In this document: in pieces, positions 2,368 through 42,406 of the stretch
Layout: each line of letters starts with the position of its first letter
How positions within the stretch are numbered: the stretch's first letter is position 1
Position numbers and translations under genes: made by a program
Notes under the pieces: generated by a model
Told to the model about the DNA's origin: nothing
What the model saw: the letters and a program-made list of their open reading frames with translations, nothing else
The model's database searches: none
IMG/VR virus record: IMGVR_UViG_3300023283_000076
Location: 32,001 to 96,000 of that record
Strand: one strand, 5' to 3'
Source of the DNA: a virus
Lineage: Duplodnaviria > Caudoviricetes
DNA length: 64,000 bases

Positions 2368-2750
2368 CTAATCTCATCAGGCGCAGTAAGCCTGAGATCA
2401 GCAAGATTTACAACCGTCTGATCCAATTCTCTCCATTCTCTAGAATCGGACGGCTGAGGCATGGCAATCGTAGCCTCAAACATACGATGCTCGTTAGAGC
2501 CTTTAATGCCAGTATTGAGACGAGTTCTGAGAATACTATTGGCGACTTTCTTGTTAAAATTATCTTGATTCGAACAGATTGCGCGGGCCACACGAACATG
2601 GAGATTGCGGCCGGTTTCGTCAGGGTCTACTACATATCCATAACTGACACAATCACTACGATCATGAATAATATGAATTCGCTTTCCGTCGCGAGTTAGA
2701 CGTCTAGGATTTTCAATCTTGTTCATTTGTTCACTCCTTTGTATGTTCAA
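2349..2750 (-). CDS. Hypothetical protein; paralog of 35130..35519 (start probably MNKIENP)
   Basis: ORF track; paralog on the right arm. Confidence 0.8.
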   Translation of the reverse strand: MNIQRSEQMNKIENPRRLTRDGKRIHIIHDRSDCVSYGYVVDPDETGRNLHVRVARAICSNQDNFNKKVANSILRTRLNTGIKGSNEHRMFEATIAMPQPSDSREWRELDQTVVNLADLRLTAPDEIRWAHEA

Positions 2751-2778
2751 TAGATATTATCAAAATTAGTTACTGATG

Positions 2779-2891
2779 TCAAACTTTTTCAAACCATTGC
2801 AGTTCTAACCCATCCAATTTCTTAAGCTGGCCATCATTATAATATTCAATTTCATTATTGTCAATTAAGAATTTTCAGGTAATTCGGTCAT
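2779..2891 (-). pseudogene. Relic of the 21-aa repeat protein gene (C-terminus only)
   Basis: Encodes IEYYNDGQLKKLDGLELQWFEKV*, like the C-terminus of 17528..18655; flanked by a ~60 bp direct repeat. Confidence 0.6.
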
Positions 2892-2944
2892 TTGATCGTT
2901 CCTTTTGTGTGTTCAGCAGATATTATCAAAATTAGTTACTGATG

Positions 2945-3220
2945 TCAATTACTATCCACCACTTCTCTTATGTTAAATAACATACGGTAAAACATGATAG
3001 CTGTAATAAATCCGGTTGCAGTTAGTTTTACATATTCTTCTCCTAGATAAAAATTAACACCCAAACCGATGCCTATCAGAAACAATACATAGAAATATAT
3101 TACTAAAGCCCCGCTGGATGCGGTTTTTTCAAATGCCGCCGATACAACATACAACAAGAACCCTAGCACCGACATTCCTATTATTGCTATAATGCTATGC
3201 TGTCCGATGAATTCTATCAT
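2945..3220 (-). CDS. Small membrane protein; paralog of 34803..35078
   Basis: Hydrophobic segments; AFEK..S...L.IYF shared. Confidence 0.7.
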   Translation of the reverse strand: MIEFIGQHSIIAIIGMSVLGFLLYVVSAAFEKTASSGALVIYFYVLFLIGIGLGVNFYLGEEYVKLTATGFITAIMFYRMLFNIREVVDSN

Positions 3221-3815
3221 AACGATCCTTTACCATTCTGTATATCATTTTATGAATACCCGGATTCACTTTCAATACCTCCGGGACGATGCTGTGTCGT
3301 ATTTGATTACGCATATAATTACAATCATTATTCGATGGATCATTAATATATTCTACCTCATGTGTATTAGCATAGTCAACGATTGCTTGCTTTTTAGTTA
3401 ACAAAAATGGCCGAATCACATTTGCTCGGTTATATTGAATTGTTTTAGGCTTTCCGTTAAATGTAGAAAATAACCATGTTTCCAAACAATCATCTAAATG
3501 ATGAGCAGTAACAATCGGAATATTGAAGCTTTCCAAAAATGTATAACGTAAATTTCTCCATGTCTCTTCTTTATTATTCGATACATGAAAATCATATTTA
3601 CCATCTACATTTGTACAAAACTCTAATCCTCTATACATAGATTGTTCTTTTACGAATTCTAATGCATAGGGAGAATGTTCAGTACCATGATTCACATGCA
3701 CCACAATAATATCTCTTTTTCCCTTGAGCAAGAAATCTAGAGCAACCATAGAATCGATTCCACCTGATACAGCCACTCCAATTTTCTGAGGAACTTTCCC
3801 AAGTAAGTTAATCAT
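3195..3815 (-). CDS. tilS: tRNA(Ile)-lysidine synthetase, PP-loop domain only
   Basis: SGGIDS PP-loop, HVNHG, TAHHLDD, RPFL, DPSN, RNQIRH motifs. Confidence 0.9.
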   Translation of the reverse strand: MINLLGKVPQKIGVAVSGGIDSMVALDFLLKGKRDIIVVHVNHGTEHSPYALEFVKEQSMYRGLEFCTNVDGKYDFHVSNNKEETWRNLRYTFLESFNIPIVTAHHLDDCLETWLFSTFNGKPKTIQYNRANVIRPFLLTKKQAIVDYANTHEVEYINDPSNNDCNYMRNQIRHSIVPEVLKVNPGIHKMIYRMVKDRYDRIHRTA

Positions 3816-4087
3816 CCGAAAATTTTAAACATAATTTCCATAAACGAAAACATAATAATGATTGCATTCATGAGCCCTACGATAATTGCAAGGGAAATAA
3901 ATATAAATGATACTATCATATATGATGGCAATAATATTAATGTAAATATACCAGTATAATCCATAATCAACTCTGGTATCGTACTAATCGCTATTTTCAA
4001 TATCGAAGGTATTACAAAAATTAACCCAAATACCAATACGAAGGGTGAATACGGATTATTTGCTATATCGTATATTAGTTGTACCAT
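3812..4087 (-). CDS. Small membrane protein; syntenic with 33936..34211
   Basis: Hydrophobic ORF overlapping the tilS start. Confidence 0.65.
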   Translation of the reverse strand: MVQLIYDIANNPYSPFVLVFGLIFVIPSILKIAISTIPELIMDYTGIFTLILLPSYMIVSFIFISLAIIVGLMNAIIIMFSFMEIMFKIFG

Positions 4088-4105
4088 AATCGTATAATAT
4101 CATTG

Positions 4106-4366
4106 TCAATTATTTCTAATAGAATGTTCGGCGATCCACTCTACAAGAGTTTCAAGTTCCACCAAATCATTGGATGTACCAAACAACATGTTACCGGATG
4201 CAGACGTAATTTCATGAATATTACCGTTCTGGCCAATAAAAGTCAACGCCTGAGATAATTCAGAAACACCATCGTTATATTTGATAATGCTAGTAGTTAG
4301 CATACCCAGTTTACCTATCTGAGTTGTCTTCTTCTCAATGCTATAATCCATTTTTTTTGCTTTCAT
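4106..4366 (-). CDS. Hypothetical protein; paralog of 33619..33876
   Basis: Shared Q.GKLG.LTT.I..YNDG.SEL.Q.LTF. Confidence 0.8.
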   Translation of the reverse strand: MKAKKMDYSIEKKTTQIGKLGMLTTSIIKYNDGVSELSQALTFIGQNGNIHEITSASGNMLFGTSNDLVELETLVEWIAEHSIRNN

Positions 4367-4404
4367 AGTGTGAACTCCTTTGTGGTGATGTATTATATCA
4401 GAGA

Positions 4405-10378: not shown

Positions 10379-11154
10379 TTAAGCTACCTTTACATTCATA
10401 GAAATATTAAACCCTGTATTAGGGTCACGAACAAATCCTGACGTATCTTGTATAGCGTCAGCCTTTGCGGACAACGCTACAATGTGCCCACCATCAGGAT
10501 CAAGAAACCGTGCGTCAAATTCATCACCGTCAATGACAGGATACCCACCCCATGTTTTAGGCTTCGGATCATTACGCTTTAGTCGCATGACTACAGCAAG
10601 ATTGTAACCTTGCTTCAAGGCTTCGATAGCTTGAGCATCATTATCTTCGGCCAAGCTATACGTTAAATGATAATTAGGCATAGCCAATGCCATCTTTCTA
10701 TTCAGAATTTTTGTATAATCATAAAACTGGATTCCCGGAAATGCCCGCATGATATTACGATAATTAACACCCTGACGAACAACACGGATTTTTTCAAACG
10801 GAATATCACTGGTGCCGTTGAGACGAATTGCCGGTATCATTTTTCACGGTGGGCTTTACGCTCCAATGATTCAGCGTTCTGTACCAATTGTACCATGAAG
10901 CTGTCACGCTCTTCAAAAAACCACTTGGTCTTACGAATACGTGCCTTTTGTACATCATTAAAGCGACCATGCCCGGAAGTATACAAACATGCTTTCTTAC
11001 AACCTTCCGTAGCATTTGCGCATGTATTATAACCACTAATGTCATTCGGGGCGAGATACAAGATACCAGTCAATATACCCTTTTTAAGACTTTTGATCGT
11101 TTTGGCATCTGCACCTACGCTCAACAGGTTTTTCGACTTGTAACCAGTATGCAA
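10379..11154 (-). pseudogene. GP88-like phage protein split by a 1-nt deletion
   Basis: 10837..11154 plus 10379..10840 equal intact 26336..27112; GAAAAGATG became GAAAAATGA. Confidence 0.75.
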
Positions 11155-11876: not shown

Positions 11877-12075
11877 CAGCATGAGATTATTGCTACAAAT
11901 TGATCGCCTTTCGTCGCCGTACCCATAATTTTCCTATTATGGTTAACTCCTTATCCAGATAAACCAAGTGCAAAACACTTGCGAATACCTATCGATCAAG
12001 CAGTGCCATCTTGTAAAGTTGGAAGCTTTCACCTTCTGGAGCAAATGACTGATTCGATTACTCACTATCCAACTT
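11877..12075 (-). ncRNA. Two adjacent structured RNA domains (A 12016-12075, C 11877-12014) without the GOLLD-like insert
   Basis: Homologous to 24282-24361 and 25100-25238, with compensatory stems. Confidence 0.65.
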
Positions 12076-12142
12076 GGAAACCATCCTAACGCTTTATTTA
12101 TTCTTTGTCAACACTCTTTTCAATTTTTTCTCTCAATACATA

Positions 12143-17527: not shown

Positions 17528-18655
17528 TTAACTCGCTTTTTCAAACCATGGTATTTCTAATTCGTTAAATCTCTTAAGCTGTCCGTCATCATAATATTCA
17601 ATTTTATTTTTATATTCATATCCATCAGAATCTTTACGATGAATCAAATTATTATTCGAATCAAATTCTTTCCAATATTCATATCCATCAGAACTTTTAC
17701 AATGAATCAAATTATTATTCGAATCATATTCTTTCCAATATTCAACTTCATCGGAACTTTTATAATGAATCAAATTATTATTCGAATCATATTCTTGCCA
17801 ATATTGAAATCCATTAGAATTCTTATAATGAATTACATTATTATTGGAATCAAATTCTTGCCAATATTCATATCCATCAGAATTCTTATAATGAATCAAA
17901 CTATTATTGGAATCATATTTTTTCCAATATTCAACTTCACCAGAATTCTTATAATGAATCAAATTATTATTCGAATCAAATTCTTGCCAATATTCATGCC
18001 CATCAGAGTGGTTATAATGAATTAAATTATTATTGGAATCATATTTTCTCCAAGATTCTATACCATCAGAATTCTTAAAATGAATTAAATTATTATTGGA
18101 ATCATATTTTCTCCAAGATTCTATACCATCAGAATTCTTAAAATGAATTACATTATTATTCGAATCAAATTCTTGCCAATATTGAAATCCATCAGAATCT
18201 TTATGATGAGTCAAATTATTATTCGAATCAAATTCTTGCCAATATTCATGCCCATCAGAATCTTTACGATGAATCAAATTATTATTCGAATCAAATTCTT
18301 TCCAATATTCATATCCATCAGAACTTTTACAATGAATCAAATTATTATTCGAATCATATTCTTTCCAATATTGAAATCCATTAGAATTCTTATAATGAAT
18401 CAAATTATTATTGGAATCATATTTTTTCCAAGATTCTATACCATCAGAATTCTGATAATAAATCAAATTATTATTCGAATCAAATTCAATGCTATCTTTA
18501 TTATTCTTTAACCACCTGACATAATCTTTATGATCACCGTTAACTTGATCTAATAACTCAAGCGGAAATCCAATAAGATTATTATTTTTTACAAATTCAA
18601 CAGCACTAGTACATGCATCGCGTTCATTTAAAAATTTTTCAGTTAATGTATTCAT
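17528..18655 (-). CDS. Tandem 21-aa repeat protein (beta-repeat, YD/MORN-like)
   Basis: ~14-15 repeats of (E/K)(Y/F)DSNNNLIH(Y/R/F)K(N/D)SDG.EYW.; 63-bp DNA period. Confidence 0.85.
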   Translation of the reverse strand: MNTLTEKFLNERDACTSAVEFVKNNNLIGFPLELLDQVNGDHKDYVRWLKNNKDSIEFDSNNNLIYYQNSDGIESWKKYDSNNNLIHYKNSNGFQYWKEYDSNNNLIHCKSSDGYEYWKEFDSNNNLIHRKDSDGHEYWQEFDSNNNLTHHKDSDGFQYWQEFDSNNNVIHFKNSDGIESWRKYDSNNNLIHFKNSDGIESWRKYDSNNNLIHYNHSDGHEYWQEFDSNNNLIHYKNSGEVEYWKKYDSNNSLIHYKNSDGYEYWQEFDSNNNVIHYKNSNGFQYWQEYDSNNNLIHYKSSDEVEYWKEYDSNNNLIHCKSSDGYEYWKEFDSNNNLIHRKDSDGYEYKNKIEYYDDGQLKRFNELEIPWFEKAS

Positions 18656-19847: not shown

Positions 19848-20276
19848 TAATATATTTCAATAACATACATTATTATGTGAACTGTAAAAATTATATTATA
19901 TAAATATTATCGCAATATCATATTGATAACATTCCGAAAACCCTATAAACACTATATTTTCAATTTTAAAAAAATACTACATAAAGTATTGTTTTTAAAC
20001 ACTTTTTTATGATGATTGGGTGGAAAATGTAAAAATATATTTGGCATGGCCCGCAAAATATAAAAATATCAAAAAAATTCTCTCAGACCCTCTTTACCAT
20101 AAGTAACTGTTTTTATTACATTTTTTTATAATGTTATTAAGTTTTTCCCTAGGGGACTAATCAATTTTTACCTTGGCCCCCTATGTAATATAGATGATTT
20201 TTATAAAACAGTTTAAAATAGTAAAAACAATTGTAAGTATTGTTGATACAGTTTGGGATGGTAATGAGGGTAAAAA

Positions 20277-20482
20277 TGAGAATCATCCTCATCGGCGTAT
20301 TGCAAATGATTATCATTCTCATCACGCTCATGAGAATAAGAATCATTCTCAAATAGCGTCATAAATGATAATCATTCTCATTTAAGATTTTAGATATATT
20401 ACTTCCATCGTATCACATTTTTAAAAAGTTGTCAAGCATTTTCATCATATGCGAACGCTATTACAAATGATAACAATTCTCA
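20277..20482. promoter_or_regulatory. Array of five Fur-box-like sites
   Basis: 7-1-7 matches at 20277, 20307, 20337, 20366 (TGATAATcATTCTCA), 20468. Confidence 0.65.
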
Positions 20483-20546
20483 TTTAGCGTAGGACATAAT
20501 GATATTCTCTACCATATTATATCACAAAAAAAGTTTAAATCAAGGG

Positions 20547-21833: not shown

Positions 21834-22979
21834 ATGAAATATTTTAGATTATCATATATAGTATTATTGTCATGTTTATTATTGTATAGTGAGGATGTTA
21901 TTGTTAAAGAATTATCTGTTAATGACGTTAGCATCATTGAACTATCGAATATATCTGAAGATAATTTAAAAGATATTGAGATAACTGTTTTTGGTCGATC
22001 ATTTACATTAGAACTCTCTAAAAACGTTGAATTGTTTTCCACATTGGTTTCTAATAATGGTGATGATTTATTTTTACGTGGAACGGTATCAGGTATTTCT
22101 AATTCTTGGGTTCGGTTGAATAGAATTGATGGAGATTTCAGTGGTGGATTCTTTGATGGTCAAGAACTCTATTTAATTGATCACAGTATGGGACTGACTA
22201 ATAATTCACTTAATGATAATACTATTGTATACAGATTATCTGATTTAAATATTCCATTTCATATTGATGATGGTGGTATTGAAAATATTTCTGTTAATGA
22301 TACAGAAAAAGATTATAAAACATTTATTGGACATTTACGTGAATTTGTTAAAATTCAAGAAACTGCTGTATTAGCATTACCTTTAACGATTGTCAGTGAT
22401 GTTGAATTTAATGATATTCATGGTGATAATGCTACATCTATAATAGCAGGTAGAATTAATTTAATTGATGGTATTTACACTAATCAATTAGGAGTTGGGC
22501 TTATATTTTATCATCATGAAATATTATCAGATAATGGTCCATTGATATCGAATGATGCATTACAATTATTAAGAACGTTTAGGACTTTTATGGATACTGG
22601 TATTGGGCAAGATATCCCCTTTGAAGGTATAGCTCATTTAGTTACTGGTAAGAATTTTGATGGTAGCACTATTGGTACTGCATTCATGGATGTTCTTTGT
22701 AGCAGTTTTGCTGGATACGGTGTTAATCAAGATTTTTCTAATGATACTACCAGTGCATTGATATTGGCACATGAGATCGGTCATAATTTTAGTGCTCCAC
22801 ATGATGGACAACCGAATTCTGCATGTGAAGATGAAACATTTAGGGGAATCATGAGTGCTAGTATTAATGGATCGCAACAGTTTAGTGATTGTAGTCTTGA
22901 TCGAATGGCGCAAGCAGTTTCTTCTGCAAATTGTTTAGTAGAACGTGGAGAAGTTATTTTTTCTGATGGTTTTGAATAA
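21834..22979 (+). CDS. Secreted reprolysin-like (M12B) zinc metalloprotease
   Basis: Signal-peptide-like N-terminus; HEIGHNFSAPHD; GIMS Met-turn; C-terminal IFSDGFE. Confidence 0.85.
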   Translation: MKYFRLSYIVLLSCLLLYSEDVIVKELSVNDVSIIELSNISEDNLKDIEITVFGRSFTLELSKNVELFSTLVSNNGDDLFLRGTVSGISNSWVRLNRIDGDFSGGFFDGQELYLIDHSMGLTNNSLNDNTIVYRLSDLNIPFHIDDGGIENISVNDTEKDYKTFIGHLREFVKIQETAVLALPLTIVSDVEFNDIHGDNATSIIAGRINLIDGIYTNQLGVGLIFYHHEILSDNGPLISNDALQLLRTFRTFMDTGIGQDIPFEGIAHLVTGKNFDGSTIGTAFMDVLCSSFAGYGVNQDFSNDTTSALILAHEIGHNFSAPHDGQPNSACEDETFRGIMSASINGSQQFSDCSLDRMAQAVSSANCLVERGEVIFSDGFE

Positions 22980-24245: not shown

Positions 24246-24274
24246 TTGACAAAGAATAAATAAAGCGTTAGAAT
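24246..24274 (+). promoter_or_regulatory. Sigma70-like promoter of the ncRNA cluster
   Basis: TTGACA-N17-TAGAAT; left-arm copy has TAGGAT. Confidence 0.75.
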
Positions 24275-24281
24275 GGTTTCC

Positions 24282-24361
24282 AAGTTGGAGACAGAGAGTA
24301 ACTGAACCATATGATCCATAGTCATTTTCTCCGGTTGCTCTAGCGTAAATGTCTCCAACTT
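24282..24361 (+). ncRNA. Stem-closed small RNA domain A
   Basis: 11-bp AAGTTGGAGAC/GTCTCCAACTT closing stem at the predicted TSS. Confidence 0.55.
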
Positions 24362-24362
24362 T

Positions 24363-25099
24363 TAATTAAGAAAAAAGAAGTACAGTTTTGGGCATGACCG
24401 TGATAGCTCATTGAAAGATGGGTAACGGGAAAGGTGCTACCCACCTTCCCGCCTAGAGAAATTTAGGTTGAGTCATGCAAGCCGAGACTCTGGAAAATTC
24501 GTCCATAATAATTCAGGCGGATTTCAGACGAAACGGGATGGTAGGTTAGACCGAGGCCAACTGGTAAGGTCGTTCTAAGGTGACGCTTAGTACCTACATG
24601 TCAACATCTTGAGCGTTGGAGAGTCAAAGGGTAGTTATTTGGTGTGAGTCTTAGCGGATAAATGCTGAATAGCAATGTTAACGGTGAGCTAAACCTTATC
24701 GTGAAACATGGTCGAAAGTAATCTTAGCGGATGAAACGGCAAACGGTGTTGTCATATTTCGTACCTCAAAAGGGTATGAAGTGATGGAGACGGCACATCG
24801 TTAGGTAGTTTGCAGTCTTTGTAGCTCAATAGGTAGAGCTACCGCCTTATAAGCGGTTTGTTGTAGGTTCAAGTCCTACCAAAGACCCATAATAGATAAC
24901 TGGGTTTAAAATGCAAAAGTCCGTCTCGGTAAAAGGTGAGCAAGGTAGTTAAGTCTACACTGCGAAAGCAGAATGTAGAATCTTTGAGGGCCGCAAGCTT
25001 GATAAGATTTGGTTAGAAGCGCACGTCGAGGGCCGTACAACCTTCGGGGGAAGCTGAAAGCCGAGTAGCCTTTTATGACAGCGCAAACGCTAGCGCTTT
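24363..25099 (+). ncRNA. Large ornate ncRNA, GOLLD-like, with embedded tRNA
   Basis: ~740 nt, GC-richer, ORF-free, many hairpins (e.g. CTGC-GAAA-GCAG; TACC-TCAAAA-GGGTA), GAGTAGC near 3' end, internal tRNA; family by resemblance only. Confidence 0.55.
24815..24889 (+). tRNA. tRNA-Ile(UAU)
   Basis: GTCTTTG/CAAAGAC acceptor, ACCGC-CTTATAA-GCGGT, GTAGG-TTCAAGT-CCTAC. Confidence 0.9.
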
Positions 25100-25238
25100 A
25101 CAAGACAGCACTACTTGATCGATAGATATTCGCAAGTGTTTTGCGCTTGGTTTATCTGGATAAGAAGTTAACTTTAGGTTTGCAGCCTGAAGGTACGGCG
25201 ACGAAAGGCGATCAATTTGTAGCAATAATCTCATGCTG
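25100..25238 (+). ncRNA. Structured RNA domain C, conserved in both arms
   Basis: TTGATCG/CGATCAA core stem; inner hairpin differs in sequence between arms but still pairs. Confidence 0.7.
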
Positions 25239-25260
25239 CTATTTACTTTAACCTCAACAT

Positions 25261-25602
25261 ATGGTACTCTTAGTCATGGATAATTTACTCGATAGACAAA
25301 AGAATGATCTTGCAAACGAAATTACAACATTCATTACAAATATTACAGGAGTAGCTGTAGAACCTAATCCGAATGAAGGATTTGAATTTGTAGAGTACAG
25401 GAATTTTATTCCTAACAAACGATCAATTAATAATTCAATTAAAGAATTCAATATTCTATTTAATGTGCTATGTGAAAACGGATGGGAAGTAGATACTGAA
25501 ATAGAAGATTTTGATCTCGCTATCCATTTAACTAAAGCTCATTGTTTTGTTACTTTATCTATTTGTCGAAATGGATTACATGTTTTTTTTGAAGAGATTT
25601 GA
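25261..25602 (+). CDS. Hypothetical protein; paralog of 11478..11838
   Basis: ORF track; paralog. Confidence 0.75.
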   Translation: MVLLVMDNLLDRQKNDLANEITTFITNITGVAVEPNPNEGFEFVEYRNFIPNKRSINNSIKEFNILFNVLCENGWEVDTEIEDFDLAIHLTKAHCFVTLSICRNGLHVFFEEI

Positions 25603-26335: not shown

Positions 26336-27112
26336 TTGTATACTGGTTACAAGTCGAAAAATCTGTTGAGCGTAGGTGCAGATTCCAAAACGATCAAGAG
26401 TCTTAAGAAGGGTATCTTGACTGGTATTTTGTATCTCGCCCCGAATGACATTAGTGGTCATAATACATGTTCTAACGCCACAACGGGATGTAAGAAAGCA
26501 TGTTTGTATACTTCCGGGCATGGTCGCTTTAATAATGTACAAAAGGCACGTATTCGTAAGACTAAATGGTTTTTTGAAGAACGTGAAACCTTCATGGCAC
26601 AATTAGTAAAGAATGCTGAATCATTGGAGCGCAAGGCTTACCGTGAAAAGATGATACCGGCTATTCGTCTTAATGGTACAAGTGATATTCCGTTTGAAAA
26701 AATCCGTGTTGTTCGTCAGGGTGTTAATTATCGTAATATCATGCGAGCGTTTCCGGGTATTAGGTTTTACGACTATAGTAAAATCCTAGGACGTAAGATG
26801 GCTTTGGCAATGCCTAATTATCATTTAACGTTCAGTCTAGCTGAGGATAATGATACTCAAGCTGTTAAAGCATTGGGACAGGGTTATAATGTTGCTACTG
26901 TCATGCGTTTAAAGCGTAATGATCCAAAGCCTAAAACATGGGGTGGTTATCCTGTTATTGACGGTGATGAATTTGATGCACGTTTTCTTGATCCTGATGG
27001 TGGTCATATTGTAGCCCTATTTGCAAAGGCTGATGCTATACATGATACGTCAGGATTTGTTCGTGATCCTAATACAGGGTTTAATATTCCTATGAATGTA
27101 AAGGTGGCTTAA
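26336..27112 (+). CDS. GP88-like phage protein (Cys-rich)
   Basis: ILYLAP...C..AT.GC.KACL.TSG.G, IRLNGTSDI, FYDY.K, YHLTFS, DGD..D.RFLD. Confidence 0.75.
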   Translation: MYTGYKSKNLLSVGADSKTIKSLKKGILTGILYLAPNDISGHNTCSNATTGCKKACLYTSGHGRFNNVQKARIRKTKWFFEERETFMAQLVKNAESLERKAYREKMIPAIRLNGTSDIPFEKIRVVRQGVNYRNIMRAFPGIRFYDYSKILGRKMALAMPNYHLTFSLAEDNDTQAVKALGQGYNVATVMRLKRNDPKPKTWGGYPVIDGDEFDARFLDPDGGHIVALFAKADAIHDTSGFVRDPNTGFNIPMNVKVA

Positions 27113-42280: not shown

Positions 42281-42406
42281 GGGTGTGTAGCTCAGCGGTT
42301 TAGAGCGTCCGACTGTGGAAGTTGTGGGATACGTAGATCAGGTTCAACTCCTGAAACTTCAAAGGTAATCGGATGGTCGTAGGTTCAAATCCTACCACGC
42401 CCTCCA
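42281..42406 (+). tRNA. tRNA with ~49-nt insertion in the anticodon loop (possibly Asn GUU after removal)
   Basis: Perfect acceptor, D, T arms and TCCGA/TCGGA anticodon stem enclosing 56 nt instead of 7. Confidence 0.85.

Follow-up and report, generated by a model that had tools for sequence, protein, structure and literature searches.

A divergent tRNA-carrying GOLLD RNA below the Rfam cut-off in a large-phage record and a probable deletion remnant of its counterpart

Parts of the right-hand locus

The window, by which we mean the whole 64,000-nt stretch of DNA analyzed here, belongs to a virus record of 270,653 nt with 48 tRNA calls. On its plus strand, a sigma70-type promoter is predicted at 24246–24274 (TTGACA-17-TAGAAT, 11 of 12 consensus matches, predicted start near 24282), and this promoter is retained at a second, left-hand copy of the motif described below. 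Fold prediction places an 81-nt leader hairpin with a 12-bp closing stem, which we term domain A, at 24282–24362 (+); compared by BLAST with about 450 GOLLD loci, it found no match. The leader hairpins of the two copies (24282–24362 and 12075–12015) retain their structure with altered sequence, and a T run follows. Several relatives have the end of a tRNA at roughly the leader hairpin's distance from the GOLLD 3′ end.

The GOLLD RNA itself spans about 24390–25239 (+), ~850 nt without the leader. Its 5′ domain, up to the linker, covers 24390–24810 (+), with an approximate start, as supported by an nhmmer profile and a folding z-score. The variable linker contains a tRNA-Ile(UAU) at 24815–24888 (+), with an intact 7-bp acceptor stem and no canonical NCCA. 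The first part of the 3′ domain, placed by the Rfam alignment at 24913–25099 (+), contains GCAAAAGTC, a long-range helix (24929–36/25069–76), the P22 hairpin (25080–25097), and the pseudoknot partners AGT (24947–49) and GCT (25089–91). Its P20–P21 region is reduced to one hairpin of 65 nt, compared with 78 to 82 nt in most relatives (about 16 nt short). The 3′ end, comprising P23–P27, lies at 25100–25239 (+), as supported by the Rfam alignment and by covariation in relatives. Using helix numbers that are our own mapping onto the published GOLLD scheme, it consists of the pseudoknot strands AGC (25107–09) and ACT (25110–12), P23 (25115–21/25209–15), P24 (25123–28/25153–58) with its tip (25133–38/25144–49), J24/26 with the word TGGATAA (25157–63), P26 (25164–69/25197–202), a variable L26 hairpin (25172–92), and P27 (25219–24/25234–39) with the loop ATAATCTCA. 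The motif originally predicted here as a unit of ~135 nt thus forms the end of a far longer RNA, and its proposed start, position 25100, corresponds to the site at which the left copy is rejoined across its deletion.

Several other features were observed in the window. A palindromic AATGATAATCATTCTCATT word that resembles a Fur box recurs several times in noncoding DNA at 20275–20486. A 381-aa, secreted-looking metalloprotease of the reprolysin type (HEIGH motif, Pfam reprolysin families) is encoded at 21834–22979 (+), on the right side only. A tRNA match at 42281–42406 measures 123 nt, about 50 nt above the normal length, suggesting that it contains an insert.

Identity of the RNA and the fold of its 3′ end

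When Rfam was searched in E-value mode, the GOLLD model RF02032 aligned over its entire length (positions 1–416 of 416) at 24744–25237, with 114.6 bits and E 3.8e-31, and the motif at 25100–25238, which the original prediction had called unassigned, was identified as the GOLLD 3′ end, the final quarter of the model. The RF02032 gathering cut-off of 150 bits is not reached because the alignment is penalized for the tRNA, the insertions in L26 and P24, and the short P21 region; the RNA therefore receives no automatic Rfam annotation, and its membership rests on structural and contextual features. At gathering level, an Rfam search of the window returned tRNAs only, and BLAST against annotated phages likewise matched only the tRNA. 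Neither an exact 24-mer from the invariant stretch nor the neighboring 260-aa protein, used as queries, found a close relative among viral contigs. The unpaired words GCAAAAG, GAGTAG, TGGATAA, AAAG, and TAATCTCA are all present in the window, in the order and with the spacing of GOLLD, as are a variable 5′ domain, a total length above 800 nt, and a phage location with tRNA genes (a 270-kb virus record, rIIA and rIIB nearby, and the embedded tRNA). We conclude that the RNA is a divergent, tRNA-carrying GOLLD that the Rfam cut-off misses and that displays every structural and contextual feature of the family open to testing.

Relatives were gathered by pattern scans (TGGATAA...AAAG...TAATCTCA, and a TTAAC-hairpin-GTACGG signature) of viral and metagenome contigs. 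Among 17 copies that share this signature and were scored, 14 pass the RF02032 cut-off (159–213 bits), and the other three, which are full-length members of the subtype, score 100 to 115 bits, like the window. The tRNA of most relatives ends ~330 nt ahead of the GOLLD 3′ end, as it does in the window, and a tRNA T-arm motif occurs at the equivalent place in 35 of 42 relatives. Its anticodon differs across the subtype (Lys, Arg, Leu, Asn, Gln, Glu, Asp, His, and others), and such free change suggests that the linker tRNA serves structure more than decoding. The ARAGORN calls in the linkers of L029, L033, L038, L078, L202, and other subtype loci include Lys, Arg, Leu, Asn, SeC, Pyl, Stop, and undetermined. 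An nhmmer profile of the 5′ parts of 38 relatives matches 24403–24810 (103 bits, E 1.5e-31), and the stretch 24280–24815 folds far better than shuffled sequences (z −4.35). A covariance model, R1, built from 43 relatives with the window left out, has only two matches within the window, at 25077–25241 (67.4 bits) and at 12038–11874 (56.5 bits).

The relatives also support the claim of the original prediction that selection acts on structure. Across the 43 relatives, P22, the L22 pseudoknot, P26, the L26 insert, and P27 are paired in 90.7% of cells, and the covariation score is 0.733, compared with 0.196 for shuffles and at most 0.217 when partners are slid; kinship inflates such scores, and the slid-partner control retains that kinship. 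P23 has at least 6 bp in 37 of 44 copies and the three inner pairs of P27 are present in 43 to 44 of 44, with 37 distinct sequences of the L26 insert among the same number. The L22 pseudoknot and the adjacent second pseudoknot both covary; the second is formed with three of three pairs in 35 of 39 parsed relatives, using nine different triples. In the window, the pseudoknots pair GCT with AGC and AGT with ACT, the latter a further triple beyond those nine.

Of the four nested stems originally proposed for both copies, TTGATCG/CGATCAA corresponds to P23 and CAAGTG/CGCTTG to the P24 tip, and both are kept in the left copy as well, the latter as CAAGTG/C(A/G)CTTG. The two outer stems fared differently. 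CAGCA/TGCTG and CTAC/GTAG would consume the two pseudoknot strands along with the 5′ and 3′ sides of P27, and the left copy has TGGCA and CTGC in place of CAGCA and CTAC, with G-U closure possible. Because the equivalent positions pair at only 54% and 25% in 40 relatives, none of which exceeds two of four pairs for CTAC/GTAG, these stems are an accident of the window sequence that competes with P27 and both pseudoknots. Relatives thus break two of the four proposed stems. It is accordingly very improbable that the motif is a stand-alone riboswitch, ribozyme, or sRNA that uses the nested fold to control the 113-aa gene at 25261. Folded in isolation, the piece does show the outer stems in its minimum-energy structure, and a start codon lies 22 nt downstream of P27. 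However, the 151-nt piece alone folds no better than shuffled sequences (z −1.17) and its centroid lacks the outer stems, a search of the riboswitch and self-cleaving ribozyme families of Rfam 15 at E up to 10 gave none over either copy, and the rest of GOLLD lies upstream in 174 of 175 relatives.

The two arms of the record and the truncated left copy

A second copy of the motif lies at 12018–11874 (−), with 88% identity over 162 nt, and the first 46 kb of the record mirror the region at 52–103 kb with 68 to 94% identity. Taken at face value, the record would describe a single real genome in which 46 kb occur twice, as a diverged inverted duplication, and the short copy is a decaying paralog; recombination of related phages at a repeat gene is possible. 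We consider this unlikely. Other assemblies break or diverge at a tandem-repeat gene of 63-nt units (21-aa repeats) at 17528–18655 (−): the 58.7-kb contig L204 matches the left arm at 99.5% identity outwards from window position 17731 and beyond it runs into 4.4 kb of genes unmatched in this record, L205 starts at 17570, and L208 ends inside the gene. Moreover, the homology between the arms extends all the way to base 1 of the record, and GC skew over 51–270 kb alone resembles two balanced replichores. The right arm is a separate contig from the same sample as L204, and contigs longer than 200 kb carry left-arm proteins, among them an RNA ligase that differs by 4% from that of the record; two right-side proteins are not found there. 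A join between two phage genomes near 17731, in the tandem-repeat gene, is therefore probable, and the simplest reading, which we consider likely, is that the arms are two co-occurring related phages joined there. Because the gene is the probable assembly join, its 375-aa product may be a hybrid. The L204 version of this gene encodes 124 aa with one unit, and L204 also carries, at 2449–4377 (−), a 642-aa intein-containing gene beside a dCMP deaminase that is not in this record. What the original prediction described as covariation between arms is thus probably a comparison of two phages, and of that covariation the two-sided change in one replaced hairpin stands; the seven other changes are one-sided.

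The left copy retains a predicted promoter (TTGACA-17-TAGGAT, 12083–12111, −), a 61-nt leader hairpin with an 11-bp stem of changed sequence (12015–12075, −), and the GOLLD 3′ end P23–P27 (11876–12018, −), which is joined to the leader at CTTT. Missing are the 737 nt that in right-copy coordinates lie between CTTT at 24359–62 and CTTT at 25096–99. BLAST finds no match to them elsewhere in the record, which rules out their relocation within it, and the presence of the upstream part in 174 of 175 relatives rules out an insertion in the right copy. An apparent rebuilt P22 was also dismissed as an alignment forced by the model over a stretch homologous to the closing stem of the leader. The assemblies L204 and L205 carry the left copy letter for letter, so it is not a sequencing error. 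It lacks P14–P22 and the 5′ domain, and with them a complete P14–P27 3′ domain, and the RF02032 search did not report it; it is a fragment of a GOLLD and not a family member.

What remains has been constrained in sequence. As originally predicted, GGATAAG.AGTTAAC and GGTACGGCGACGAAAGG are identical in both copies, and the hairpin after TTAAC is entirely replaced yet forms seven of seven pairs in each, a replacement accounted for by the free variation of the L26 insert in relatives. Outside this hairpin, ~119 nt contain seven substitutions, whereas fourfold sites in paired genes differ at 22% (binomial P about 1e-6; pS 0.35 for six gene pairs between the arms). All seven are one-sided transitions compatible with the GOLLD fold. 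The left copy retains GGC and ACT, whose pseudoknot partners are deleted, and since GGC is the family consensus at that strand, the GGC/ACT changes are most simply older than the deletion. The neighborhood of the left copy has decayed recently: the gp88-like gene (PF17338) at 10379–11154 (−) is split by a single 1-nt frameshift deletion in an A run (pN 0.05, pS 0.39) and two further left-arm ORFs are reduced to fragments. The gp88-like gene is also split in L204 and L205, and its intact counterpart lies at 26336–27112.

Deletion derivatives mediated by microhomology occur in nonessential tRNA and noncoding RNA regions of phages. The left copy resembles them in the 4-nt direct repeat at its ends and in the cuts to neighboring genes, and differs in that its breakpoints coincide with helix boundaries and that what remains after the promoter is a closed RNA module. 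We read it as the product of a recent 737-nt deletion via CTTT microhomology in a related phage, with the replaced hairpin older than the deletion. We assign a probability of roughly 90% to the reading that 25100–25239 is the terminal P23–P27 module of a phage GOLLD RNA of the tRNA-carrying subtype and that the left copy is the 737-nt deletion remnant in a related phage.

A remnant is likelier than a working short RNA because neighboring genes are broken and because the upstream GOLLD RNA is absent from just one of 175 other distinct 3′ ends with enough flank, a count resting on patterns that require the GOLLD 3′ end by design. That one case, the provirus L016, has only the last ~170 nt of GOLLD (900–1091, +), immediately after a tRNA-Met, and its near relative L032 is full-length. 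Five more candidates for truncated copies were rejected as full GOLLDs at or above the cut-off. Two points count against a remnant: no change in the left copy breaks a stem, and both deletion ends fall at helix ends, as would also be expected of a functional short form. One could propose that leader hairpin and P23–P27 work as a ~200-nt RNA maintained by selection, serving perhaps as a monomeric decoy or as a cage-capping partner for the full GOLLD of a co-infecting relative. The retained promoter, the fit of all seven point changes to the GOLLD fold, the identity of three assemblies, and the natural 3′-only copy in an unrelated provirus all favor such an RNA, which we nevertheless consider improbable: its pseudoknot strands are orphaned, the breakpoints differ between the left copy and L016, and the known cage bridges, L24 excepted, all lie in the deleted part (PMC12286853, PMC12990946). 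Two such cases, whose breakpoints differ, are too few to constitute a family. We find it similarly doubtful that GOLLD has been trimmed naturally, in the left copy and independently in L016, to a self-contained P23–P27 core of ~140 to 170 nt that is still expressed and selected; if true, that core would be a minimal functional GOLLD unit separable from cage formation.

The 3′ module might instead outlast deletions only since P27 and the T-rich run after it end or protect the transcript, the rest being carried along. A T-rich run does follow P27 in the window and in 18 of 46 copies, and the L016 remnant sits directly behind a tRNA. This, too, is a poor candidate, however, as the terminator scan does not call P27, the retained sequence extends far beyond it, and the tails of the other 28 copies are not T-rich.

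A putative role and comparison with known GOLLD RNAs

Structures have been solved for the env-38 GOLLD 14-mer (PDB 9MEE) and for the Streptococcus agalactiae 12-mer (9L0R) and 3′ domain 10-mer (9LMF) (PMC12286853, PMC12990946). In env-38, L27 is base-paired to P23 and J24/26, L26 docks on P14 through its adenosines, L22 takes part in a pseudoknot, the molecule is divided into distinct 5′ and 3′ domains, and the 14-mer cage encloses the linker (PMC12286853); the S. agalactiae 3′ domain forms its 10-mer by itself (PMC12990946). Judged from these structures, the near-invariant unpaired words TGGATAA and TAATCTCA and the adenosines flanking the L26 insert would make tertiary contacts in the window RNA. 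L27 pairing with J24/26 and P23, together with L26 docking on P14, would knit the 3′ domain together; AUCU of L27 could pair with GGAU of J24/26, in a register that we infer, and the L26 hairpin and the P24 tip would be peripheral and free in sequence. By homology, the window GOLLD likely forms a cage, with many copies enclosing a hollow in which the linker tRNA-Ile(UAU) would reside, and some of the cage bridges may differ given the short P20–P21 region. An inhibited storage role has been proposed for GOLLD-embedded tRNA (PMC12990946). As a tentative first choice, ahead of a host-nuclease decoy or a ribosome-binding role (a ribosome pull-down has been mentioned), the putative job of the RNA is to keep the tRNA module shielded or stored while infection proceeds, out of reach of host nucleases or processing.

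Overall, the window RNA shares with RF02032 GOLLD its phage origin, a length above 800 nt, a variable 5′ domain followed by a linker and a conserved 3′ domain ending in P23–P27, the words TGGATAA and TAATCTCA, two pseudoknots, and a tRNA-rich genome. Unlike RF02032 members, it scores below the Rfam cut-off, has a hairpin inserted in L26 and a long P24, and has a single-hairpin P20–P21 about 16 nt short, although S. agalactiae GOLLD also lacks P21b. Its own predicted promoter and 81-nt leader hairpin set it apart from GOLLD relatives. A tRNA-shaped linker module just before GCAAAAG is a feature common to the linker-tRNA and pseudo-tRNA GOLLDs of, for example, Mycolicibacterium tRNA arrays (PMC6582537, PMC12990946); compared with the linker-tRNA GOLLDs of these arrays, the window has a tRNA-Ile(UAU) with an intact acceptor stem, in a subtype whose anticodon varies.

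The window RNA therefore adds a member missed by Rfam to a GOLLD subtype of large phages that is marked by the L26 hairpin insert and a linker tRNA of varying anticodon. The two copies form a natural deletion pair, in which near-related phages from the same sample carry a full and a 737-nt-deleted GOLLD, and this suggests that at least one lineage can do without GOLLD RNA. The same pair supplies ready constructs for testing whether P23–P27 folds alone.
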